Of a stretch of DNA of 64,000 bases, positions 2,810-63,982 are shown one piece after another; position 1 is the stretch's first letter; each line of letters begins with the position of its first letter. Where the stretch lies: assembly GCA_013239625.1 (NCBI GenBank), contig MU053557.1, forward strand, positions 441,063-505,062. The letters run 5' to 3'. Origin of the DNA: Lama guanicoe. Its lineage: Eukaryota. The translations under genes were made by a program, and so were the position numbers. A model generated the notes under the pieces. The model saw nothing but the letters and a program-made list of their open reading frames with translations, had not been told where the DNA came from and did not search any database.

Positions 2810-3572
2810 ATTTCTTTATTCACATTTTCTTTATCCATTTATCCACTGGCAGACACATAGGTTGTTTCCATATCTTCGCTTTCATGAATAATGCTGCCGT
2901 GAACATGGGGGTGCAGGCATCTTGTCAAGATACTAATCTTATTTCCTATGGGTGTACGCCCAGCAGTGGTATTGCAGCATCATGTGGTAGTTCTCTTTTT
3001 AAGAAACCTTCCTGCTGTTTTCCCTGGTGGCTGTGCCAATTCACACTCCTGCCACAGAGTACAAGGATCCCCTGTTCTCCACATCCTTGCCAACACTTGT
3101 TATTGTCTGTCTTTTTGATAATTCCCACTCTAATGGTGTGAGGTGATACCTCACTGCTGTTTTGATTTGCATTTCCCTGATAATTAGTAATCCCGAGCAT
3201 CGTTTCATATAACTGTTGGCCACTTGTATGTGTCCTTTGGAAAAAGTATCTATTCAGATTCTTTGTGCATTTTAAAAATTGGATTTTTTTTTTTTTTTTG
3301 CTGTGGAGTTAACTTATATGTTAACTTGTATGTTTTGTATATTAACCCATTATCAGATGGTTTGGAAATATTTTCTCCCATTCCATAGGTTACCTTTTCA
3401 TTCTGTTGTTTCTTTTTCTGTACATAAATTTTTAAATTTCATGTAGTCCCATTTGTCTATTTTTGCTGTAATTGTCTGTGCTTTTGGTGTCATATCCAAA
3501 AAAATCACTTGCAAGTCCAATGTCAAGGAGCTTTCCCTGTTTTCTTCCAGGAGTCTTAAGGTTTCAGGTCTC
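2810..3572 (-). mobile_element. Older LINE-1 ORF2 3' fragment
   Basis: Minus-strand ORFs carry L1 ORF2 C-terminal motifs (MKRCS..LIIREMQIKT..RYHLTP; NKCWQGCGE; ELPHDAAIPLLGVHP). Confidence 0.92.
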
Positions 3573-9051: not shown

Positions 9052-10031
9052 TGTCGTATCACCTACAGGAATGGAAATTTCTCCTTGTATCTCCTCATAT
9101 TTAGCACACTACGATCTCTAGGTAACTAGGACTATTTTCCTAAACTTTATTTTAGAAAAATGTTAAGTTGCCGAATTATCTCACTCAGTATTGGCTGGCA
9201 ATGATACTGAGAAATATGCTCATTCATTTATAGGTAGTTATGTGGGTATATTGTAGTCCTACAATTCCATTTCATTCTGACACTAACTACTCAGGCACCA
9301 ACTGCACAGGTTAAGGGCTCAGTCCACAAGATTGCTTTAGACACTGGCCACAAACAGGGCTCCTGTGCTACCTGTATTCTGCCTGGCTGACTACAAATTC
9401 AGGGGTTCCCACAGCCTTCCCAAGGTTTGATAATTCACTAGAATGACTCATAGAACTCAGGAAAACATCTTACTTACATTTACCATTTTACTATAAAGGA
9501 TACAACTCAGAAATAGCCAAATGGAAGAGATCTATAGGGCAAGTGTGGGGCAGAAGGATGAAGTTCAGGATCATCTGGACAGAAGAGATGAGGGTGGGGT
9601 GCAGAGCTTCCACGCCCTCACAAGGCAGGTCACTCTTTTAGCACGGTGATGTTTTCACCAACCCAGAAGCACGCTGAACCTCACCATTCAAGTTTCATTA
9701 TGTAGGCATGGCTTATTAAATCATTAGCCATTGGTGATTGAATTCAATCTCCAGTTTCCTCTTCTCTTTCCTGGAGGTCAAGGTGTAGGGCTGAACAGTC
9801 CATTTAACTACATGCTTGGTCTTTCTAGTGAACGGTTCCCATCTTGCAGCTACCTAAGGGTCCTGCCTTTGGTCACCCCACTAGCATAAATTCAGGTGTG
9901 GTAAGAAAAGGGATTATTATAAATGAATTAAAAAAAAAACTCCTGCCATTCAGGGAATTTCAAGAGTTTTAGGAACTCTGTTCTATCAACCAGGGACAAA
10001 GACCAAATATGTATACTTTTATTATACCACA
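9052..10031 (-). mobile_element. MER21-like solo LTR (ERVL)
   Basis: ttctgacactaactac, agggctcagtccacaaga, cactagaatgactcatagaactcagg and the terminus gaccaaatat...attataccaca match the reverse complement of MER21. The left boundary is uncertain (9052-9250). Confidence 0.85.
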
Positions 10032-12628: not shown

Positions 12629-14006
12629 ACTCAGACCTAAACCCACACACCTGTGGTCAATTACTCTATGGCAAAGGAGGCAAGAAAATACAATGGAGAA
12701 AGGATAGTCTCTTCGGTACGTGATGCTGGGAAAACTGGACAGCTACCTGTAAAGCAATGAGATTAGAACACTACCTCACATTATACACACACATTCAAAC
12801 ACCTCAAAATGGATTAAAGACCTAAATTAAGACCCAAAACCATAAAAGTCCTAGAAGAGAACATAGGCAGAACACTCTTTGACATTAACCGTAGCAATAT
12901 TTTTCCGAACATGTCTCCTAAGGCAAAAGAAATAAAAGCAAAAATAAATGGGACCTAATTAAATTGAAAAGCTTTTGCACAGCAAAGGATATCATGGACA
13001 AAATGAAAAAAACCTATGGAATGGGAGAAGATATTTGCAAGTAACGTGACCGACAAAGGGTTAAAATCCAAAATATACAAATAGCTCATCCAACTCAGTA
13101 TCAAAAAAAACAAATAACCCAATCAATAAATGGGCAGAAAACCTAAATAGACATTTTTCCAAAGAAGACATACAGATGGCTGACAGGCACATGAAGAGAT
13201 GCTCAACGTCGCAAATCATCAGATAAATGCAAATGAAAACAGCAATGAGAAATCACCTCCCACCTGTCAGAATGGCTGTCATCAAAAAGTCTACACATAA
13301 CAAATGTCAGAGAGGATGTAGAGAAAAGGAAACTCTTGTTCACTCTTGTTGGGAATGTTAATCGGTGCAGCCACTACGGAGAACAGTATGGAAGTACAAA
13401 ACTAAAAATAGAATTACCATATGATCCAGCATTTCCACTCCTGGGTATATGTAAGGAAAAAAATTAAAACACTAATTCAAAAAGATACATGCACCCCAAT
13501 GTACATAGCAACACAATTTATAATACCCAAGTTACAAAAGCAATCCAAGAGCCCATCAATAGATGAACAGATAAAGAAGATGTGATATATACACACACAC
13601 ATATATATGAAATCCTGCCATTTGCAGCAACATAGATGGACCTAGAAAATACTATGCTTAGTGAAATAAGTCAGAGAAAGACAAAATTTTTCTAAAATCT
13701 AAAAAAAAAAAATACAAAAATGTATATGCAAAACAGAAGCAGATTCACAGACACAGAAAACAAACTAGTGGTTACCAAAGAGGAAAGGGGAAGAGGGAGG
13801 GGAGAGATGGGATTAAGAGATATAAACTACTATGTATAAAACAGATCAGCAACAAGGATACATTGCACACACGGGGAAATAGAGCCGTTACTTTGTAACA
13901 ACTTTTAATAGAATATAATCTGTGAAAATAATGAATCACAGTGCTATACATCTGAAACTAATGTAATATTGCAAATCAACTATACTTAAATTTAAAAAAA
14001 TAAAGG
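12629..14006 (+). mobile_element. 5'-truncated LINE-1 (~1.4 kb) with TSD
   Basis: Continuous L1 ORF2 3' region, 3' UTR and A-rich tail. TSD aaatgagctga (12618-12628) / aaatgaactga (14007-14017). Confidence 0.95.
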
Positions 14007-32880: not shown

Positions 32881-34937
32881 TAGAGCCATTCACTGTACTT
32901 ACCCTCTACCCTTTATTCTTCATTACACTGATTCTCATTTGTTGTATTGATTACCACTTGACTGTGTCCTAAAAATTCCTTCCTTACTTTGAACAGTAGA
33001 CATTTCAGCCAAAGTATGTGGCCTTGCTGGTGATTAGAGAAAAGTTTTCTATAGAAAAGAGGTACCTTAGGTGATGTGATGCACTGCTGTGACCAGAGGG
33101 GACTTTTTACCTCATATTATACAGAATAAAGTTTTACAAAAAAAAAAAGATTTTCAAGCATTTCACTAAAAGAACATGAGAAAATTCTACTGCTAAGTGA
33201 CTGAGCTCCCTCCAGCCACCTCCCTACCCCTGTCTTTGTCTCATTCTTTTCAATGCTCCAGCAGTGCCAAGTTTACAATAGTGTCTTTCATTCCTAGCTC
33301 AAAAGGTTTTTCTGTTTTTTTCTCCCTTTTCTCCTCCAAACACACTTATACAGCAAAACTTTTTTTTCAAGATGTCCTAGGAAGTTGACAAAATGCCAAC
33401 CTTTTCTCTAACTATGCAAAAATGTCTTTTAAAACATGGTTTAAGATAGCAGTTTCTTTCTGCTTACCTTTACCTCTTCTTCCTCCAGTTGGGTTTATGG
33501 ATGGTGCCCAGTATTTGGGCCGGAGTGAGAGATTCCATCTCACCCCGAGGGAAAGCTGTTAAGCTTTCTGAAGCTCTACAGGGCAGTTAGAAACATCGGT
33601 GAGGGAGAGGCTGCTAGCTTACCTCTGAACTGTGCTCTTCGGAGCCGTACCTCACTAAGAGCGCGTGTCAGGGCTGTCACAATAATGCAAAACCAGCTTA
33701 GATTAGAGTTCCCAAAACCCTGCTTGACATGACCAGTCAATACAGAGAAATCTACAGGCAGCACAAGTGCAGCTTGCAAGATGAATCTGTCAGTGGAAGG
33801 AGCTGATTATACATCAGGTCCTATGTGCTCTGTTCAGCGTGCTCTTCCTTCTTACCTGTCAGTGGAAAGGACTTTGGAGATGAGCTATGGTGGTGGTATG
33901 GGAAAATCTGAGTCAAATGTGAATAATTTAAAAAAATTGTTTTCACTTTGTCTCCTTTCTTTTTTGGCCACAAAATCTTGTGTAAAACACCCATACTAAC
34001 CAGATAAACTTCTCGGAAGTAGAATTTATAGTTGCTGACTTTACTTTTTCACTTCTCATTCATCCTTTGATTTGGATTTTTTTAAATGATAAAAATAATA
34101 CAAGGTCAAATAATAAACGAGTTTTTTTTTTAAGTTAATAATCTCTGATGGCTTTCTCTCCAATACTCCCCTCCCCACCCCAAGGGAACCGGTCATAATA
34201 CTTTGGGGTGTTTCTTTCTCTTTCTCTATTCTCTCATCTAATCGCTCTTCTTGGTCACCAAAATCAAACATCCATTTCTTTTCAGTCCTTGTATTATTTG
34301 ACCTCAAAAGAACATTGGACTCTGTGGATTAATCTTTCCTTCACAAGATCTTCTCTTTTCTTGCTTTTTCCTACACCTTTTTCACTTCTTTCCTGCCTTT
34401 TTGATCATTCCTGCCCAGTGTTTGTTGCTAGCTCTCATACCTCTGCCTGCTTGTCAACGTTAGTGCTCCGTCCACTGCAGGCAGACCATACCTCCAGAAA
34501 CTCCGCCCATAGAATTAAAGAAACTTTGGACGAAAGTCAGAGTTCGTCCAGTGTTTTCATTTTATTGATAAGGAACCCGAGGCAGAGAGAGTGAAGAAGT
34601 AACATATCTGAGGTCATTTCAGAGCCTGAACCTCAAACAATAGCTTCCTGACTTAAAATCCAGATCTGGATACAGGGCAGCGATCTACCGATTTCCTGGT
34701 ATATTTCTTTCATTTAGTCTTCTCCCCTCTACCCCCTTTTTGGCTTGGGAAGAGCAGAATTACAAGGTAAATCTAATCTTCAACGATGGCTTTTTAATAT
34801 GGCAGTAATAACACACTACATAGGAATTCATCTGGGGACGCCGACAGGAAAAACTAAAGAGAACAGTGTGATTTGTTTCATTTATCCTGAGAGGAAAAGG
34901 GGGTAAACAGGCTCCCCTGAAGATTGGGATAAATTAT

Positions 34938-35670
34938 TTTATTTTATTTTTCATTTTTAAATTTATTTAACTTTTAATGGAAGTACAGTCAGTTACAATG
35001 TGCCAATTTCCAGTGTACAGCACAATGTTCCAGTCATGCATATACATACATATATTCATTTTCATATTCTTTATCATTAAAGGTCATTACAAGATGTTGA
35101 ATATAGTTCCCTGTGTTATACAGAAGAAACTTGGGTTTTTGAAATCGATTTATATATAAATAGTAGCTAACATTTGTAAATCTCAAACTCCCAAATGTAT
35201 CCCTTCCCACCGCCTTTCCCCTGGTGACCATATGATTGTTTACAATGTTTGTAAGTCTGTTTCTGCTTTGTGGATGAGTTCATCAGTGTCCTCTTTGTTT
35301 CCTTTTTTTTAGATTCCACATATGAGTGATATCATATGGTATTTTTCTTTCTCCTTCTGGCAGCCCTTATGGAAAACACTATGAAGATTCCTCAAAAAAC
35401 TAAAAATAGACTCATGATCCAGCAATCCCACTCCTGGGCATGTATCCAGAGGAAACCTTAATTCAAAAAGACACCTGCCCCGCAATGGTCATTAGCAGCA
35501 CTATATACAACAGCCAAGACATGAAAACAACCTATGTGTCCATCGACAGATGACTGGATAAAGAAGCTGTGATATATTTATACAATGGAATACTACTCAG
35601 CCATAAAAAAGAATAAAATAATGCCATTTGCAGCAACATGGATGGACCTGGAGATCATCATTCTAAGTGA
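34938..35670 (-). mobile_element. LINE-1 insertion with 5' inversion (twin priming)
   Basis: Poly(T) and L1 3' UTR on the minus strand (34938-35361) joined to plus-strand L1 ORF2 sequence (35362-35670). TSD agattgggataaattat (34921-34937) / agatcgggataaattat (35671-35687). Confidence 0.95.
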
Positions 35671-36099
35671 AGATCGGGATAAATTATAATCGGCACAGAG
35701 AGAGAGCTGAAGTTACCCGGGATGAGGCTCCTCTCAGAAGCACTTAGGAAGCTAAAGGCCCTGGGAGCAGCCGGAAGTCAAACTGACAGAGTGGCTCAAT
35801 TACAGCTTCTCAGGGAAAAGCCACTGAGTCAGAACCACAGATATGGGGGCACCCTTTATGTGCCTGGACTTATGCTAATCTCTTTGTACATGTAACTATA
35901 TTTTCCAAACTCCAAACCAGGGCATATCAAGTGATCACAGAAAAGACCGCTTGAGATTTGGGGGTTTCATAACTGCTCTGACATGGAGCATTACAGGAAT
36001 ACAAGTCATGGTCTCCAACATCCAATTATCAGAATCCATTTATCGTTACAAGGTACTGTGTGTAGCACATTAGTGAGAAATTGTAAAACTGGCTCTGAT

Positions 36100-40860: not shown

Positions 40861-41455
40861 GTGGAAACTTCATGTGTTTTCTTCACACTCAGCACAGGGA
40901 TCCCTAGATAAATAGGCCTATTGCTCTAACCTTCACTTTAGAAAAATGTCAAGTTGCCAAATGACCTCCCTCAGTATCAGCTGACAATGATGCTGCAGGA
41001 CGTGTTCATCCACTCACAGGGAACTACCTAGGTACGTGGTAGTCCTGCAATTGAACTTAATTCCGGTACTAACCGCTCAGAATTAGCACAGACCCCACAG
41101 GTAGAGGGCTCAGTCCACAAGACTGCTCTAGACTCCAGCCACAAATAGGGTGGCCAGGCTATTTGCACTCTGCTTGGCTGATGACAGTTTTGAAGGTTCC
41201 CATGTCCACCCACCTCAGGTTTAATAATTCACTAGAATGACTTATAGAACTCAGAAAAACACTGGACTCACACTTACCATTTTATTATAAAGGATACAGC
41301 TCAGAAACAGCCAAATGGAAGAGATGCACAAGGGGAGGATGGGGTGGGAGGACATGGCTCAGGATTAGCCACGTGGAAGAGCCGGGGCAGGGGGCAGAGC
41401 CCCCACGCCCTTCCAGGGCAGCACGTGGCTGTGTTCCCCAGCACGGAAGCTCTCG
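40861..41455 (-). mobile_element. Second MER21-like LTR (partial)
   Basis: Colinear with 9070-9675 (ttagaaaaatgt.aagttgcc; agggctcagtccacaaga; ataattcactagaatgact; aaaggataca.ctcagaaa.agccaaatggaagagat). Confidence 0.85.
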
Positions 41456-56383: not shown

Positions 56384-56670
56384 AGAAAATATGCGTTTCT
56401 ACTTCAGGTATCAGATTGAAAAAAAAAAGTGGTCTTTTTCAGTTTAGCCTCCTGGAGGATGGCTGAGACTAAGTTTATTGTTTAAGTTCAGTTCCTAATT
56501 TGGTTTGGAAGTGAACTTACCACTTGAGAAAATATGCGTTTCTACTTCAGGTATCAGATTGAAAAAAAAAAAGTGGTCTTTTTCAGTTTAGCCTCCTGGA
56601 GGATGGCTGAGACTAAGTTTATTGTTTAAGTTCAGTTCCTAATTTGGTTTGGAAGTGAACTTACCACTTG
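56384..56670 (+). repeat. Two-copy direct tandem duplication (143/144 bp)
   Basis: 56384-56526 and 56527-56670 read identically except for A10 versus A11. Confidence 0.97.
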
Positions 56671-57769
56671 ATCAAACTCACCAGGGCGAGCAGCTCGGTT
56701 GGGGCTACACTGACACAAGCTCTCTAACGCACTTAAAGACTCCTGGGTTTTCTTCGTTTAAATGACTGAAGGCATGATTCAAAATGGTACCGCGTAGAAG
56801 GGAAAAGGCCCGGCAAGTGATTAACTGGCTGATTTGGTGACCTGGAAATGGGCCTTTGGATCAGGGAAATGCATCCCATATTCTGGACCTAAGAAGATTT
56901 TGGAATGTTTGGAGTACCTGGCGTAATAAAAGTAAAAGGCCCTGTGTACTGAATATAGACACTATGTTATGTCCTCCATAAGAACCAACTTATTCAATCT
57001 TGATATAAACTTTATACCATAAATGCTTTTCTTACACTCATTTTACCAATATAAAATGAGACCAAGAAAGAATAATTAATTAGCTTAAGATTATAGCCAA
57101 TAATTGGCAGGGTCAGGATGTGGCCTCAGATCTAAGTGCAGGGTCTGCATCTAAACCACTCCCTTTGCCCCGTGTATCTGTGAACGGAAAAACAGAATCC
57201 CACAAACGATTCCTCAGTATTACCACCAGAAATTCTCCTCATTAGGAAAGTGTAAAGTGGGATCAGTTACAGGTTGCAGCTAATATTACTATTTAATGTT
57301 TTCCTTTCTTATACCAGTGAATTTCTTAATGATTTTTTAATTTAAACATTCTTCTCTTTTGTAGTTTGTACATTTATCTCAGGTTAACTGAAAGATATCT
57401 AAATGCACTTGGCTTATAGTAGGATTAATATGTTCTTATAACCACTATTGTTTCCACATGATGACAAACAAAGAAGAAATGTGGAAATAACCTTAGCACA
57501 AACCAAAGCCTCTGACAACCACTAATGTGTATCATATTAGTAGAAGAAATAGGAAGAATTAAAGATTCTGGAGAAATATGTCAATTTAGAGGATGCTCTT
57601 AAGAGCTCAATTTTCCACTGAAGATTTCAACATATTATTATTTTACCCCAAATGTTTCTATTATGCCTGAAAAACAAAATGTGACAGAGTGAAAGGAAGA
57701 GGAAGCTGATTGACAAGTTTCCTGGAAACGAGTAGAAGTGGGCTGAGGAGAGAGGGGTCGGCATGTTGG

Positions 57770-58336
57770 GAAAGGCATAGACTTTGGAGGCAACTTAGAC
57801 CCCGGATCACATCTCAGCTCAGCCAATTCAGAACCTTGATCTTGGGCAAGTTTCCTACACTCCCGAAGCTTTAATTTTCTCATTTATAAAACTGGAAAAC
57901 TATACCTAGTAAGTAGGATTCATGTGAAGACTTAACGAGACAGCAATAATATTATTGCAGTTTGGTGACGTTATTATGTACCAGTTATTACTTAGTCATA
58001 AAATAAAATGAGAACTGTGAAGTACCATTAGCCCCATTGTACAGATGTGTGAACTGAGGCTCAGAGAGGCTATGCTATCTGTCCAAGGTCACAGAGCCAC
58101 TGAGGAAGGGAGGTGTGATTTACCTGCGCCTGTGTTACACATCAAGGGCAACTGCCCTTACCGGGTCACTACAGAGTGGAAGATGTGTTGGACTGAGAGA
58201 GTGGAGACTTGAGTCTTAGTCCCAGTTTGTCTCTGACCAGCTGTGGGACCCGGGACAAATCACTTGCCCTCCTCGGGCCTCAGTTTTGCCGATTTCAAAA
58301 TGAAGCGCCAACCCAGATGACTTCCAAAGTCACTTC
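57770..58336. mobile_element. Three MIR fragments (+, -, +)
   Basis: gatcttgggcaagtttcct...; cccattgtacagatgtgtgaactgaggctcagagagg; ctgtgggacccgggacaaatcacttgccctcctcgggcctcagtttt. Confidence 0.85.
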
Positions 58337-58359
58337 AAAATTAATAGGAAAAGCTTAAG

Positions 58360-59127
58360 ATGGGGAGAAGTTTCCCCACCAGAACAGAAAGAGCAACAGA
58401 AGTGCCAAAATTTCTGCTCAAAGAAATAATCCCAAGATTTGGGCTGCCAGAAAGCTTACAGAGCGATAATGGACCCTTATTCAGCGCCAAGGTGACTCAG
58501 CAGGTGTCCTCAGCTCTGGGTATTAACTACCGCCCCCACTCTTCCTGGAGGCCCCAATCCTCAGGCAAGGTAGAGGCAAATCACGTTCTAAAGAGAACAC
58601 TTGCTGAGCTGTGCCAGGAGACTTCAGAAACCTGGGTCCCCCTCCTGCCTATAGCCCTTCTAAGAATAAGAACGGCCTCTAAGGGAATTTTAAAACTCAG
58701 CCCATTCGAAATGATGTATGGGAGGCCCTTTTTAACGTCAGATTCCCTGTTTGATGAGAAAACTCACAGATTACTTTCCCACATTGTTAGTTTAAGTCAA
58801 GTTCAAAAGGCTCTCCAAGGATATGGAAATAAAGTGTTGCCCTTTCCCACAGAGGAAAAGGTTGAAGTCCCTGTCCGGTTAGGGGACTGTGTCTTACTGA
58901 AAACTTGGAAGGAGGGGTCCCCTGAAGACCAGCTGCAGCCAGAATGGAAGGGACCATACCAGGTCCTACTGAGCACCCCAACCGCCGTTAAGCTGTGAGG
59001 AATCGCTATCTGGCTACATCTGTCCAGAATAAAACCTGTAACTTATAAGCTCCAACAGGAACCAGGAGAGACCTACGCTTGTGAGGCAATACAAGACCTC
59101 AGGTACCTGTTTAAGAAAAACAAATGA
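58360..59127 (+). pseudogene. pol: Gammaretrovirus-like integrase fragment (pol C-terminus)
   Basis: EIIPRFGLPESLQSDNGP, RPQSSGKVE (35 residues between D and E), SPFEMMYGRP and WKGPYQVLLSTPTAVKL (GPY/F module). After the in-frame TGA at 58996-58998 the frame continues GIAIWLHLSRIKP...DLRYLFKKNK to a stop at 59125-59127. The N-terminal HHCC and first catalytic D are missing. Confidence 0.95.
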
Positions 59128-59747
59128 TATCATGTAGCGGTGATTAAAACAGTTCATAATTGCTTGAATATATCCAATTGAAGCTCCTAAAAAATATATA
59201 TTTCAATACACAGTAGAAAAGTAAAAAGTTTCATGCTTAATCAGTATTCTAAGTATTTAACAAATTCTAAAGGTTCTTAGTAGCTCCAGCTGCCTTTGAG
59301 ATGCCTGGAAGGAAACCTGGGGCGTCTTAGATATTAAGTTAACTAGGATTCTTTAATATGTTAAGTTAAATGTAATCAATCGTGACTTTAATAATTGTAA
59401 GGAGATCTCTGTCAATTGCAGGTATTTAACCATGTCTTTTAAGTCTTTTGTCGTTATAGAGAGTTAAACTGCTGTTCCAAAGGTGCTCCATCATCAAGAA
59501 GGTTATGAAAGCGGTTACAACAGTTTCACATCAAGGTAAGGCTCTGTGAGGATTCCAGCCTGTCCCGCACTGGGGCGCAGAAACAAAAGGCTATCCTGCC
59601 CCTGGGGCCCCTAGGTTAGGCATTCAGAGGTTTTTACTCCTGATAGGCAGGGTCAACGCCCCTACTCAGCCTGGAAGCAGTTTCAGAAGATGGACCTTCA
59701 CCCCTCTGCAACCTCGTAAGATTAAGGGAGTAAAATCTGAGGGGGAT

Positions 59748-60220
59748 TGAGACAGGAGGGAAGGGGGCAGGGCACAGCCACTCAAGGAATGACAGCAACC
59801 AGAATGGTGGAAGGTTCACCTCCTAGTTGGCCTTGAGGATTAAGAGGTTTGACTTCTAGCAGAACTTGAGCTTCATTATATGCTTATTGCAACAGCGTGA
59901 TCAAATAACATGCCCGCAGGTGCCATGACAGTCCCAAGGCTAACCGCAAAAAGCCAAAGAATGGGCGGTGGCCCAGTTCCTGGGAATCCCAGCCCCTTCC
60001 CCAGGGCAGTTGGAATGGTCCCACCTGTAGGCGTGTGAAGCTACTGAGCCCATAAAAAGTGGCACGCCTAGCGGCCCTTTTCGCTCCCTCCTCTTGGGAG
60101 ACGGCCCGCACTCTGTCTGTGGAGTGTGTACCTACTTTTACTTTACCCTGAGCACCCTTTCCTTGCTTTTCTCTTGCCTTACACTCTATGCAGTGTGTAT
60201 CTCTCTAAATAAATCTACTC
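59748..60220 (+). mobile_element. MER41-like 3' LTR, U3-R only
   Basis: Follows the polypurine tract gagggggat and starts with TG. Shares MER41 hallmarks cattatatgct, gccatgacagt, cagttcc.gggaat, ccataaaaa and ctctgtct.tggagt. Confidence 0.75.
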
Positions 60221-61485
60221 AAAAAAAAAAAACTAATAATAAATGTGAACTTGCTCTTTTCTTCTGTGAGAGGCTCCTCCTGCCACTGGTGGGAAGCTGG
60301 ATCCCTGCAGTGAACTGACAGTGGAAATGTTGACATGACGTGAGTCTCCTGGTTCTTCCCTCCCACCCAAGCACACCCTCAGTCACTGTCGGCGCCAGCG
60401 TCGGTGTGAGACTCTGTCTGAAGCACTTAGTCATGCGGACAGCCCGCTTCAAAAGCAAAGTGTATTTGCCTGAATTCAAATTTACCGGAAATGACATTCA
60501 TCCTCTTTCTCACATGATAAGAGTTATCACTTGCCTGTGACAGGCAGCAGTTGCACACAGAAGGGAATTTAAAAAGAGAATCAAAGTGGAAAGAAGAAAG
60601 GTAAAATAAGGAAGCTATTTTGTCTTATCTCTCAAATGAAGTTGAACTTTTAGAGGTGAGGTAACACAAGCTAATTTAAAATATTACTCTGATAGAACAG
60701 GGTGTGCAAGGAAAACCAAAAGCAGAATAAGAAGTTCTCGGGCATTCGGAATAACCAAGCTCTAAGCTGGGGAGACAAAAACCGTTCAACACTTTTAAAA
60801 GAAACGTTAAAAACAGTCTTTTATCACTGAAAAATCTTTTCTGTAACTCAAAATAATTTTACTTTGTCTGTTTTGACCAATTATTGCCCAAAATGATGAT
60901 TTTGATGATCAGCGTCTAATAGATGGAGGTTCACCGCTGACCCGGCTCTTTGCCCGGCTCTCGGACCTACAGTTCCTTCCATACAATGGTCCCTGTGCTT
61001 AATCATTATTTCTCAAGGACTAGTCTACCAAGAGGTCAGAATCCCAGCACAAGGGCTCATTTCATTCCCCATCTTTCCCAGCAGTGGCTTCTGGGTTGTG
61101 AAATTGTGCCATTTCAGCCCAGAGAGGTTCTACAAGCAGTCTACGAGCGGACTTTGATTCGGCCAGCCCACTTAATCGAGAGCATCTTAATAGTCGCTGA
61201 TGACCAGGGGCTTCGAAAGATTTGGTAATGGATGGGCTGATCATACCACGTGAAAGTTAGTTCAAATTGCCCTCGATAAGAGTCTACCACCAATTCAACT
61301 GACTGAGAGATGTTTAGCGGATCCTGGTGGGTGATCTAGTACTGATTCTGCCTATTTGCAAATGATTTGTAGAGTCCACATGCTGTTTAAAAAGCCTATA
61401 AGACACTGTATTGTAAGATGTCATCAATACTACTGCAATCAGAGAGTAAGATAAAACACGATTTGGAGATTCTAAAGAAGCTAAG

Positions 61486-61629
61486 AAATTGGGAGTTCGA
61501 GATTTGCAGGTACTAACTACTACACATAAAATAGATAGACAACAAGTTTACGCTGTACAGCACAGGGAACTACATTCAATATCTTGTAGTAAGCTATGAT
61601 GGAAAAGAACATGAAAACAAGCAAACAAA
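61486..61629 (+). mobile_element. Short L1 3' UTR insertion with 12-bp TSD
   Basis: gggagttcgagatttgcagg...ctgtacagcacagggaactacattcaatatcttgtag; TSD aaagaagctaag (61474-61485) / aaagaggctaag (61630-61641). Confidence 0.85.
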
Positions 61630-63332: not shown

Positions 63333-63982
63333 GTTTTTGTTTTTATTTTTCTTTTATTGAAGTGTAATCGATTTACAGTGTTAGTTTCAGATGCACAGCA
63401 AAGTGATTCAGTTATATGCATACATACGTATATACTTTCTCAGTTTTTTTTTCCAGTACAGCTCATTACAAGGTATTGAATATAGTTCCCTGTGCTATAC
63501 AGTAGGTCCTTGTTGTTTATCTATTTTATATATAGTAACATGTATCTATTAATCCCAAACTCCTACCCTACCCTTCCCCTGTCTCTTTCCCCTCTGGTAA
63601 GCACAGTTTGTTTTCTGTGTCTGTGAGTCTATTTCTGGTTTGTAAATAAAATTGGGGGGTTTTTTTAGATTCCAAATATAAACGACATCATATGATATTT
63701 GGCTTTGTCTGACTTACTTCACTTAATATGATAATCTGTAGGTCCACCCATGTTGCTGCAAATGGCATTATTTCATTCTTTTTATGGCTGAGTAGTATTC
63801 CATTGTGTGTATATACCACATCCTTTTTACCCATTCATCTGTCAATGGACATTGAGGTTGCTTCCATGTCTTGGCTATTGTAAACAGTGCTGCTGTAAAC
63901 ACTGGGGTGCATGTGTCTCTTTAAATTTGAGTTTTCTCCAGATAAACGCCCAGGAGTGGGATTGCCAGATCATATGGTAACC
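63333..63982 (-). mobile_element. LINE-1 3' end (poly(T), 3' UTR, ORF2 end)
   Basis: T-rich tail at 63333-63358; gaatatagttccctgtgctatacagtagg; ttttatggctgagtagtattccattgtg; cccaggagtgggattgc. Confidence 0.95.

Follow-up and report, generated by a model that had tools for sequence, protein, structure and literature searches.

An ERV fragment of 1.9 kb at positions 58337–60238 of a 64,000-nt stretch of Lama guanicoe DNA (the window, analysed over its whole length) raises the question of whether it was left by retroviral integration or was copied from RNA and inserted by the L1 machinery. The unit consists, in this order, of a 10-bp repeat, a 5'-truncated integrase, an env-less spacer, a purine tract, an LTR, AATAAA, A12 and a second copy of the repeat (Table 1). 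A sequence-only reading had described these features, and all of them were located in the sequence at the positions that it gave. The hallmarks of a provirus are two LTRs, TG...CA termini and a duplication of 4–6 bp, whereas this locus shows a single LTR, a TG start only and a 10-bp duplication. A second LTR copy was not found in the 64,000-nt window, and Rfam gave no match anywhere in it. The fragment is dead, with no promoter upstream of it and a broken integrase, and no function is indicated for this copy.

Table 1. Features of the inserted unit and its left flank (window positions).
Feature	Position	Strand	Remarks
Host flank, old interspersed-repeat fragment whose end took the insertion	58190–58336	+	direct sequence; about single-copy depth
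Left target-site duplication (TSD) copy	58337–58346	+	10 bp, TC directly before (TC/AAAA)
Unassigned 5'-junction nucleotides, ~11–14 nt, likely extra	58347–58357/60	+	no match to either side
Integrase fragment, class I (gamma-like), dead	58358–59127	+	Pfam rve E 6e-5, MLVIN_C E 1e-13
Env-less spacer, ~620 nt	59128–59738	+	multi-copy depth, joints in other family copies
SPRE-like core	59666–59683	+	agrees with the published core at 15/17 letters, with one additional base; C-rich stretches on either side
Polypurine tract	59739–59746	+	immediately before the LTR; direct sequence
3' LTR, U3 and R only, 473 nt	59748–60220	+	TG start; U3 and R labels putative
Remnant poly(A) tail, 8 A	60221–60228	+	A12 minus 4 A of the right repeat
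Right TSD copy	60229–60238	+	9/10 identical to the left copy; single-copy host DNA beyond

The 5' end of the element lies in the integrase, for which the Pfam E-values were obtained with the translation read with X at the stop. The N-terminal domain is missing from the fragment, as is the beginning of the core; its reading frame shifts close to the 5' end and is interrupted by a stop codon at 58996–58998. A total of 485 homologues were found, the best 120 of which showed 42–72% identity. MLVIN_C and the mammalian ERV homologues indicate a class I pol, a feature common to all ERV1 and not specific to MER41. The sole close homologue named by cluster look-up came from horse, and the proteins gave no family name. 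A PDB search with the integrase returned distant integrases only. At least 19 residues upstream of the match were present in 53 of the 120 best homologues; in 35 of these 53 the similarity stopped at 58369, and it reached ~58358–58361 across the frame shift when the other frames were scored. In no frame did the nucleotides in front of this point resemble the residues that lie upstream in 59 anchored homologues, and the ~11 nt at 58347–58357 are likely junction additions. Such extra 5' nucleotides occur in 12–15% of truncated L1/Alu insertions (PMC2912911; here and below, statements on cited articles refer to their accessible parts). Five longer relatives, including one of 1030 aa, gave no significant match anywhere else in the window, and thus no other ERV pol match upstream. 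Since upstream pol and a second LTR are absent and the similarity ends at ~58358–58361, the element was cut inside the integrase. The earlier description of an integrase fragment without a 5' LTR was thus borne out by the Pfam domains and by the single LTR.

Pfam gave no match in the spacer, and thus no env remnant, when its three forward frames were read with X at stops. The element contains one match to the SPRE core, the motif being taken from PMC8579622, while 100 shuffles contained none. The SPRE-bearing entries in the table of that article include HERV17, MER41-int and four alpaca families. SPRE-like elements are listed there in 378 families and are therefore insufficient alone to explain uptake by L1. 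As a separate observation, the A/T-rich part of the spacer at 59147–59580 is skipped by other family copies in pieces of 124–347 nt; it could be captured non-viral sequence, or the missing pieces could reflect splice or deletion variants.

The structure of the 3' end was followed in the LTR itself and in related sequences. A TATA-like hexamer lies at 60051–60057 and AATAAA at 60208–60213, which is followed by 7 nt and by A12 at 60221–60232. The earlier account, in which the LTR ran into A12 at 7 nt past AATAAA, was correct in its positions; the right repeat, however, accounts for four of these 12 A, which leaves a tail of 8 A. As a control, 14 other A/T runs of at least 10 in the window were inspected, and one of them shares an AATAAA at 7-nt spacing. 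This control run (33125–33148: AATAAA, 7 nt, A11) has no recognised element upstream. AATAAA plus an A-run alone is not diagnostic of a retrocopy.

At least half of the element's words were carried by 14 of 24 listed sequencing runs (four organisms). Contigs from four of these 14 were aligned to 57950–60650 at 80% likeness, namely from the DNA runs X1, X2 and X4 (organisms A, B and C) and from X15, which as a guess was treated as RNA. The LTR start is fixed at 59748 by 249–277 contigs in each DNA run with unrelated loose ends before that base. The LTR depth in the DNA runs was ~2,000 times that of the flank, a summed contig depth and not a copy number. Consequently, the LTR is that of a high-copy family. 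The summed family depth at 80% likeness was 30,000–136,000 over 59748–60224 and 42–104 in the following bin; from bin 60134–60224 to bin 60225–60315 it fell 668-, 709- and 749-fold in the three DNA runs, and from 60316 onward it was at single-copy level in all three. The ~700-fold fall and the single-copy DNA beyond it show that the family LTRs do not run into 60233 onward. The converse, family LTRs that contain the A-run and continue past 60233, had been named beforehand as the result that would speak against an L1-made copy, and it was checked with these depths: they collapse after 60224. As judged from this collapse the 3' LTR ends after R, without U5. No family U5 was seen among the loose ends and joints listed for the three DNA runs and X15, and no terminal CA with a 4–6 bp duplication was recognised past the A-run.

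Two further observations concern the LTR. At 59977–59986 in U3 a TTC-N4-GAA motif resembles the STAT sites reported for MER41-like LTRs (a bovine family; PMC9435751). At 60090–60160 many family contigs diverge from the window, with loose ends at 60090, 60145 and 60157; the family comprises LTR subfamilies that differ in this C/T-rich segment, which probably belongs to R.

The two copies of the 10-bp repeat were the longest and best flanking match when both element edges were searched; they differ by one mismatch and are A/T-rich. At one mismatch or fewer the right copy occurs at 8 other sites in 128,000 positions (both window strands), and the chance that such a match falls 15 positions or fewer from a given edge is ~0.001. 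TC/AAAA at 58335–58340 is one base away from the TT/AAAA motif of L1. The left flank (58190–58336), which we take to be MIR-like, showed a weak nhmmer similarity (E 0.03) to the neighbouring repeat at 58032–58102 on the opposite strand. The TT/AAAA-type insertion motif of L1 is described in PMC5016936 and PMC2912911. The earlier claim of a near-identical 10-bp repeat bracketing the unit at TC/AAAA is confirmed at both edges, with 9 of 10 letters matching.

The U3-R-like end, the tail, the 10-bp repeat, TC/AAAA and the 5' truncation match the signature of an L1 insertion and not that of retroviral integration. These features and the extra 5' nucleotides fit the earlier reading of an L1-made ERV copy, and L1 target-primed reverse transcription very likely made the unit at 58337–60238. 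Points that speak against it include the tail of only 8 A, the A/T-rich repeat with its mismatch, the short gap between AATAAA and the tail, and the control A-run with the same spacing. In the proposed course of events transcription of an env-less provirus would have yielded an RNA that was cut and polyadenylated past the AATAAA of the LTR; with such cleavage U5 would never have been part of the template. The L1 endonuclease would have nicked the TC/AAAA site, and the free T-rich end would have primed on the poly(A) tail, with L1 ORF2p as the reverse transcriptase. Reverse transcription would then have stopped inside the integrase after ~1.87 kb, and during joining ~11 extra bases would have been added and 10 bp of target duplicated. 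We infer the nicking, the tail priming and the premature stop from the structure of the unit, and the germ-line or early-embryo timing because the insertion was inherited.

As to the template, L1 probably acted in the germ line of an ancestral camelid and copied in trans an RNA of this ERV family that had started in the LTR. Orphan transductions are a known phenomenon, and the same L1 chemistry could have acted on another RNA, either an L1 read-through RNA (an orphan 3' transduction in cis) or a host read-through transcript that used the poly(A) signal of the LTR. If this were true, the ERV promoter need not have been active. The copy is truncated in the integrase and its 5' end is therefore uninformative on where the RNA began, which leaves room for such a template. 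Apart from the ~11 nt at the junction, however, the unit contains neither L1 nor unique host sequence. Past the TATA-like hexamer at 60051, the 3' half of the LTR had 2.9 times the depth of the 5' half in X15, compared with 0.72–0.90 in the DNA runs, a profile that hints weakly at LTR-started family RNA. X15 covered neither the right flank nor much of the internal region, and such holes prove nothing. On this evidence a read-through template appears unlikely.

The unit could also be an ordinary provirus whose 5' part and U5 were lost by later deletion or recombination, with the A-run and the 10-mer present by chance or through a slipped A-tract. The age of the element, whose long paralogous pieces are 12–18% different, would allow for such decay; A/T runs of at least 10 are common in the window (n=15), and the short distance from AATAAA to the tail suggests a local loss. 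Two independent deletions would nevertheless be required, one of them ending right past the poly(A) signal, and in addition a 9/10 repeat at both edges (~0.001) at an L1-type site. No provirus remnant exists on either side. Decay of a provirus is thus an improbable origin. Finally, the LTR might be whole, with an internal A-run and a diverged U5 from 60233 onward, where the pyrimidine-rich stretch at ~60244–60270 may be somewhat like the U5 of MER41-like LTRs. Family contigs should, however, also have covered a U5 as old as the rest of the LTR, whereas the depth is low in the next bin and at flank level after it, and no terminal CA with a 4–6 bp duplication was recognised. This reading is very improbable.

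For a copy made by L1 from RNA, the junction of LTR and tail would indicate where the RNA ended. The usual distance from AATAAA to the tail is 10–30 nt; the gap of 7 nt is shorter, and a few bases may have been lost in this copy. In X15 the excess depth in the A-run bin was 1.2% of that in the last LTR bin, compared with 0.1% in the DNA runs (~12x). One X15 contig of another subfamily contains AATAAA and six further letters; its match to the window resumes at 60214, shortly ahead of the A-run. This one contig weakly suggests that the family RNA ends ~13 nt past AATAAA and that a few bases are missing in the copy at 58337–60238. The X15 depth and the single contig thus hint only weakly at the poly(A) site of the family being recorded by the copy, as stated earlier, and relative to AATAAA the recorded site is perhaps off by a few bases.

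Possible sibling copies were sought in the same alignments. If the excess in the A-run bin of the DNA runs lay entirely on the eight A positions, it would correspond to 21–24 single-copy equivalents. In X1 the internal region was covered 7–33-fold, which is of the same order. The excess could alternatively arise from alignments that overrun the LTR end by a few letters. These data are weak hints of more A-tailed copies of the family and of an RNA end at this site. A tentative suggestion, which we consider rather doubtful, is that L1 made tens of copies of this family, the present element among them; a second, non-primate family, camelid and MER41-like, would then have expanded its internal sequence mainly through L1, as HERV-W did. 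The LTR-start motif had no match in the viral, metagenome or genome collections searched, and a search of plasmids for other copies was likewise negative. The integrase alignment search yielded 3 viral and 52 metagenome-contig candidates and no confirmed locus. Five loci from a scan with a spacer motif were rejected as bacterial chance matches of 17–26 letters; the pattern used was one letter shorter than the spacing in the window, which made the scan a poor test.

The insertion is common to three close relatives (organisms A, B and C). In each of X1, X2 and X4 one contig at single-copy depth crosses the left junction (57950–58435, 0–2 differences), and one contig, likewise at single-copy depth, crosses the right junction (60189/60190–60650). 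The contigs across the right junction contain 31–32 letters of the LTR side and 1–2 gaps at or near the tail. No empty allele was seen in X1, X2 or X4. Between the window and the longest paralogous pieces of the internal region 12–18% of the letters differ, in a sample that favours diverged copies. Together with the short tail and the mismatch between the two repeat copies, this divergence points to an old insertion, whose age is bounded by that of its source from above only.

The signature of an L1-processed ERV copy has been described as a 3' LTR cut to U3-R, a poly(A) tail, TT/AAAA and a TSD of 5–15 bp (PMC5016936, PMC5537654). Processed copies were found at 135 of 213 HERV-W loci (PMC5016936, PMC5537654, PMC5775608), and HERV-W has been described as the only HERV group that L1 mobilises specifically, with determinants that are unknown (PMC5537654, PMC5775608). 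For its close relatives, the ERV-W of Platyrrhini, the accessible part of PMC6995185 reports no L1-processed copies. A 2024 review mentions the L1 route for HERV-W (PMC11359688). The camelid copy resembles the processed pseudogenes of catarrhine HERV-W/ERV-W in its class I origin, its U3-R end, its poly(A) tail, a TT/AAAA-type site and a duplication within 5–15 bp; HERV17 is likewise listed with an SPRE-like element (PMC8579622). It differs from them in the camelid host, the other family, the env-less interior and the loss of the 5' end, and thus of any R-U5. A 5' LTR beginning at R (R-U5) is a feature that lies outside this copy, whose 5' end was lost inside the integrase. Moreover, the HERV-W fraction given above compares with one copy shown in the camelid family.

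Outside HERV-W, L1 has retrotransposed rec mRNA of HERV-K(HML-2) at the loci 2q32.1 and 5q15 (PMC4351823). The camelid copy is like these a sporadic L1-made copy of ERV RNA, and the copy at 5q15 is also 5'-truncated and has a 10-bp duplication and a tail (PMC4351823). The HML-2 loci are, however, betaretrovirus-like, derive from spliced env-region RNA and belong to the human lineage, whereas the camelid copy is gamma-like and contiguous from integrase to LTR.

With regard to the family, 1,715 MER41_Vpa elements were extracted from alpaca, 1,227 of them with candidate orthologues in the wild Bactrian camel, and none are given for the non-camelid species listed in the accessible part of PMC9435751. 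The camelid families MER41_Vpa/B/C comprise 1,000–1,700 elements each in alpaca (PMC9435751). L1-processed copies find no mention in the accessible part of that article, and the LTR motifs were not found in those of its supplements that were searched. Primate MER41-int, which has been grouped with HERV-W and HERV9 (PMC4724089, PMC5753468), is listed with an SPRE-like element (PMC8579622), as found in the camelid copy. The present LTR is like MER41_Vpa/B/C a high-copy camelid ERV1 LTR, a likeness of traits and not of aligned sequence; its depth of ~2,000 times the flank, again a summed depth and not a copy number, is in line with the counts for MER41_Vpa. The MER41 label is plausible for this element.

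The ERV segment of SVA ends at the poly(A) signal of the LTR. The camelid element is like SVA/SINE-R in that an ERV-derived segment (there a HERV-K10 fragment, PMC2912911) stands at the 3' end of an RNA mobilised by L1. SVA is composite and highly amplified, whereas the camelid element is a plain ERV fragment without VNTR or Alu part.

No L1-processed ERV of a camelid or other non-primate was found in the open-licence PMC and bioRxiv literature. The words MER41 and pseudogene are absent from the main text of two camelid TE surveys (PMC8605555, PMC6675863), and PMC2584115 and PMC6675863 contained nothing relevant. The L1-processed ERV is a known type, represented by HERV-W and the two HML-2 copies; the camelid host is new within the literature searched. 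A case from a camelid class I ERV means that the L1 route is not limited to primates, and the copy marks the likely end of the family's RNA. As a single copy it is a modest finding, since L1 occasionally copies any polyadenylated RNA. A family-wide pattern, if true, would turn the question raised by HERV-W into a comparative and testable one: HERV-W and the camelid family could be compared for RNA features such as the SPRE-like element, in order to ask why L1 takes only some ERV RNAs.

The substitutions in the element were counted over 58347–60220 as places where the window letter stands against an alternative present in at least 10% of the aligned depth. In the DNA runs, 90–94 places with G in the window and A in other copies were opposed by 49–57 C/T places, G and C being equally common (p 0.0002–0.001; the runs are not independent and the direction is not resolved). 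A/G and T/C places were balanced in these runs. Among the listed places with a high-share alternative, 12 were G/A and 5 C/T (p 0.12; 35 of 40 listed, five driven by a single contig being set aside), and a pairwise tally at the protein level gave 3 versus 2. ADAR disfavours G as the 5' neighbour of its target, and a 5' G depletion would be expected if the template had been edited. A 5' G was present at 4 of the 12 listed G/A sites against a background of 115/539. ADAR editing of 58347–60220, which had been considered as a candidate for the strand asymmetry, is thus not supported.

Other parts of the window contain additional repeats. A tandem duplication of 144 bp at 56384–56671 includes a 16-bp inverted repeat, and its two copies, 99% identical, have internal A-runs of unequal length; either it arose very recently or it is an artefact of the assembly. 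Several 3'-end fragments of L1 that vary in age and are 67–86% alike lie at 242–786, 2820–3571, 12830–14004, 34954–35672, 61489–61617 and 63334–63980. For the L1 ORF2 tail at 237–473, which falls in the first of them, the only named matches among the best 120 were two Camelus dromedarius L1 proteins with 85–86% identity, in agreement with a camelid host. Two copies of another interspersed repeat of ~520 bp, 73% identical to each other, are found at 9113–9628 and 40899–41421.
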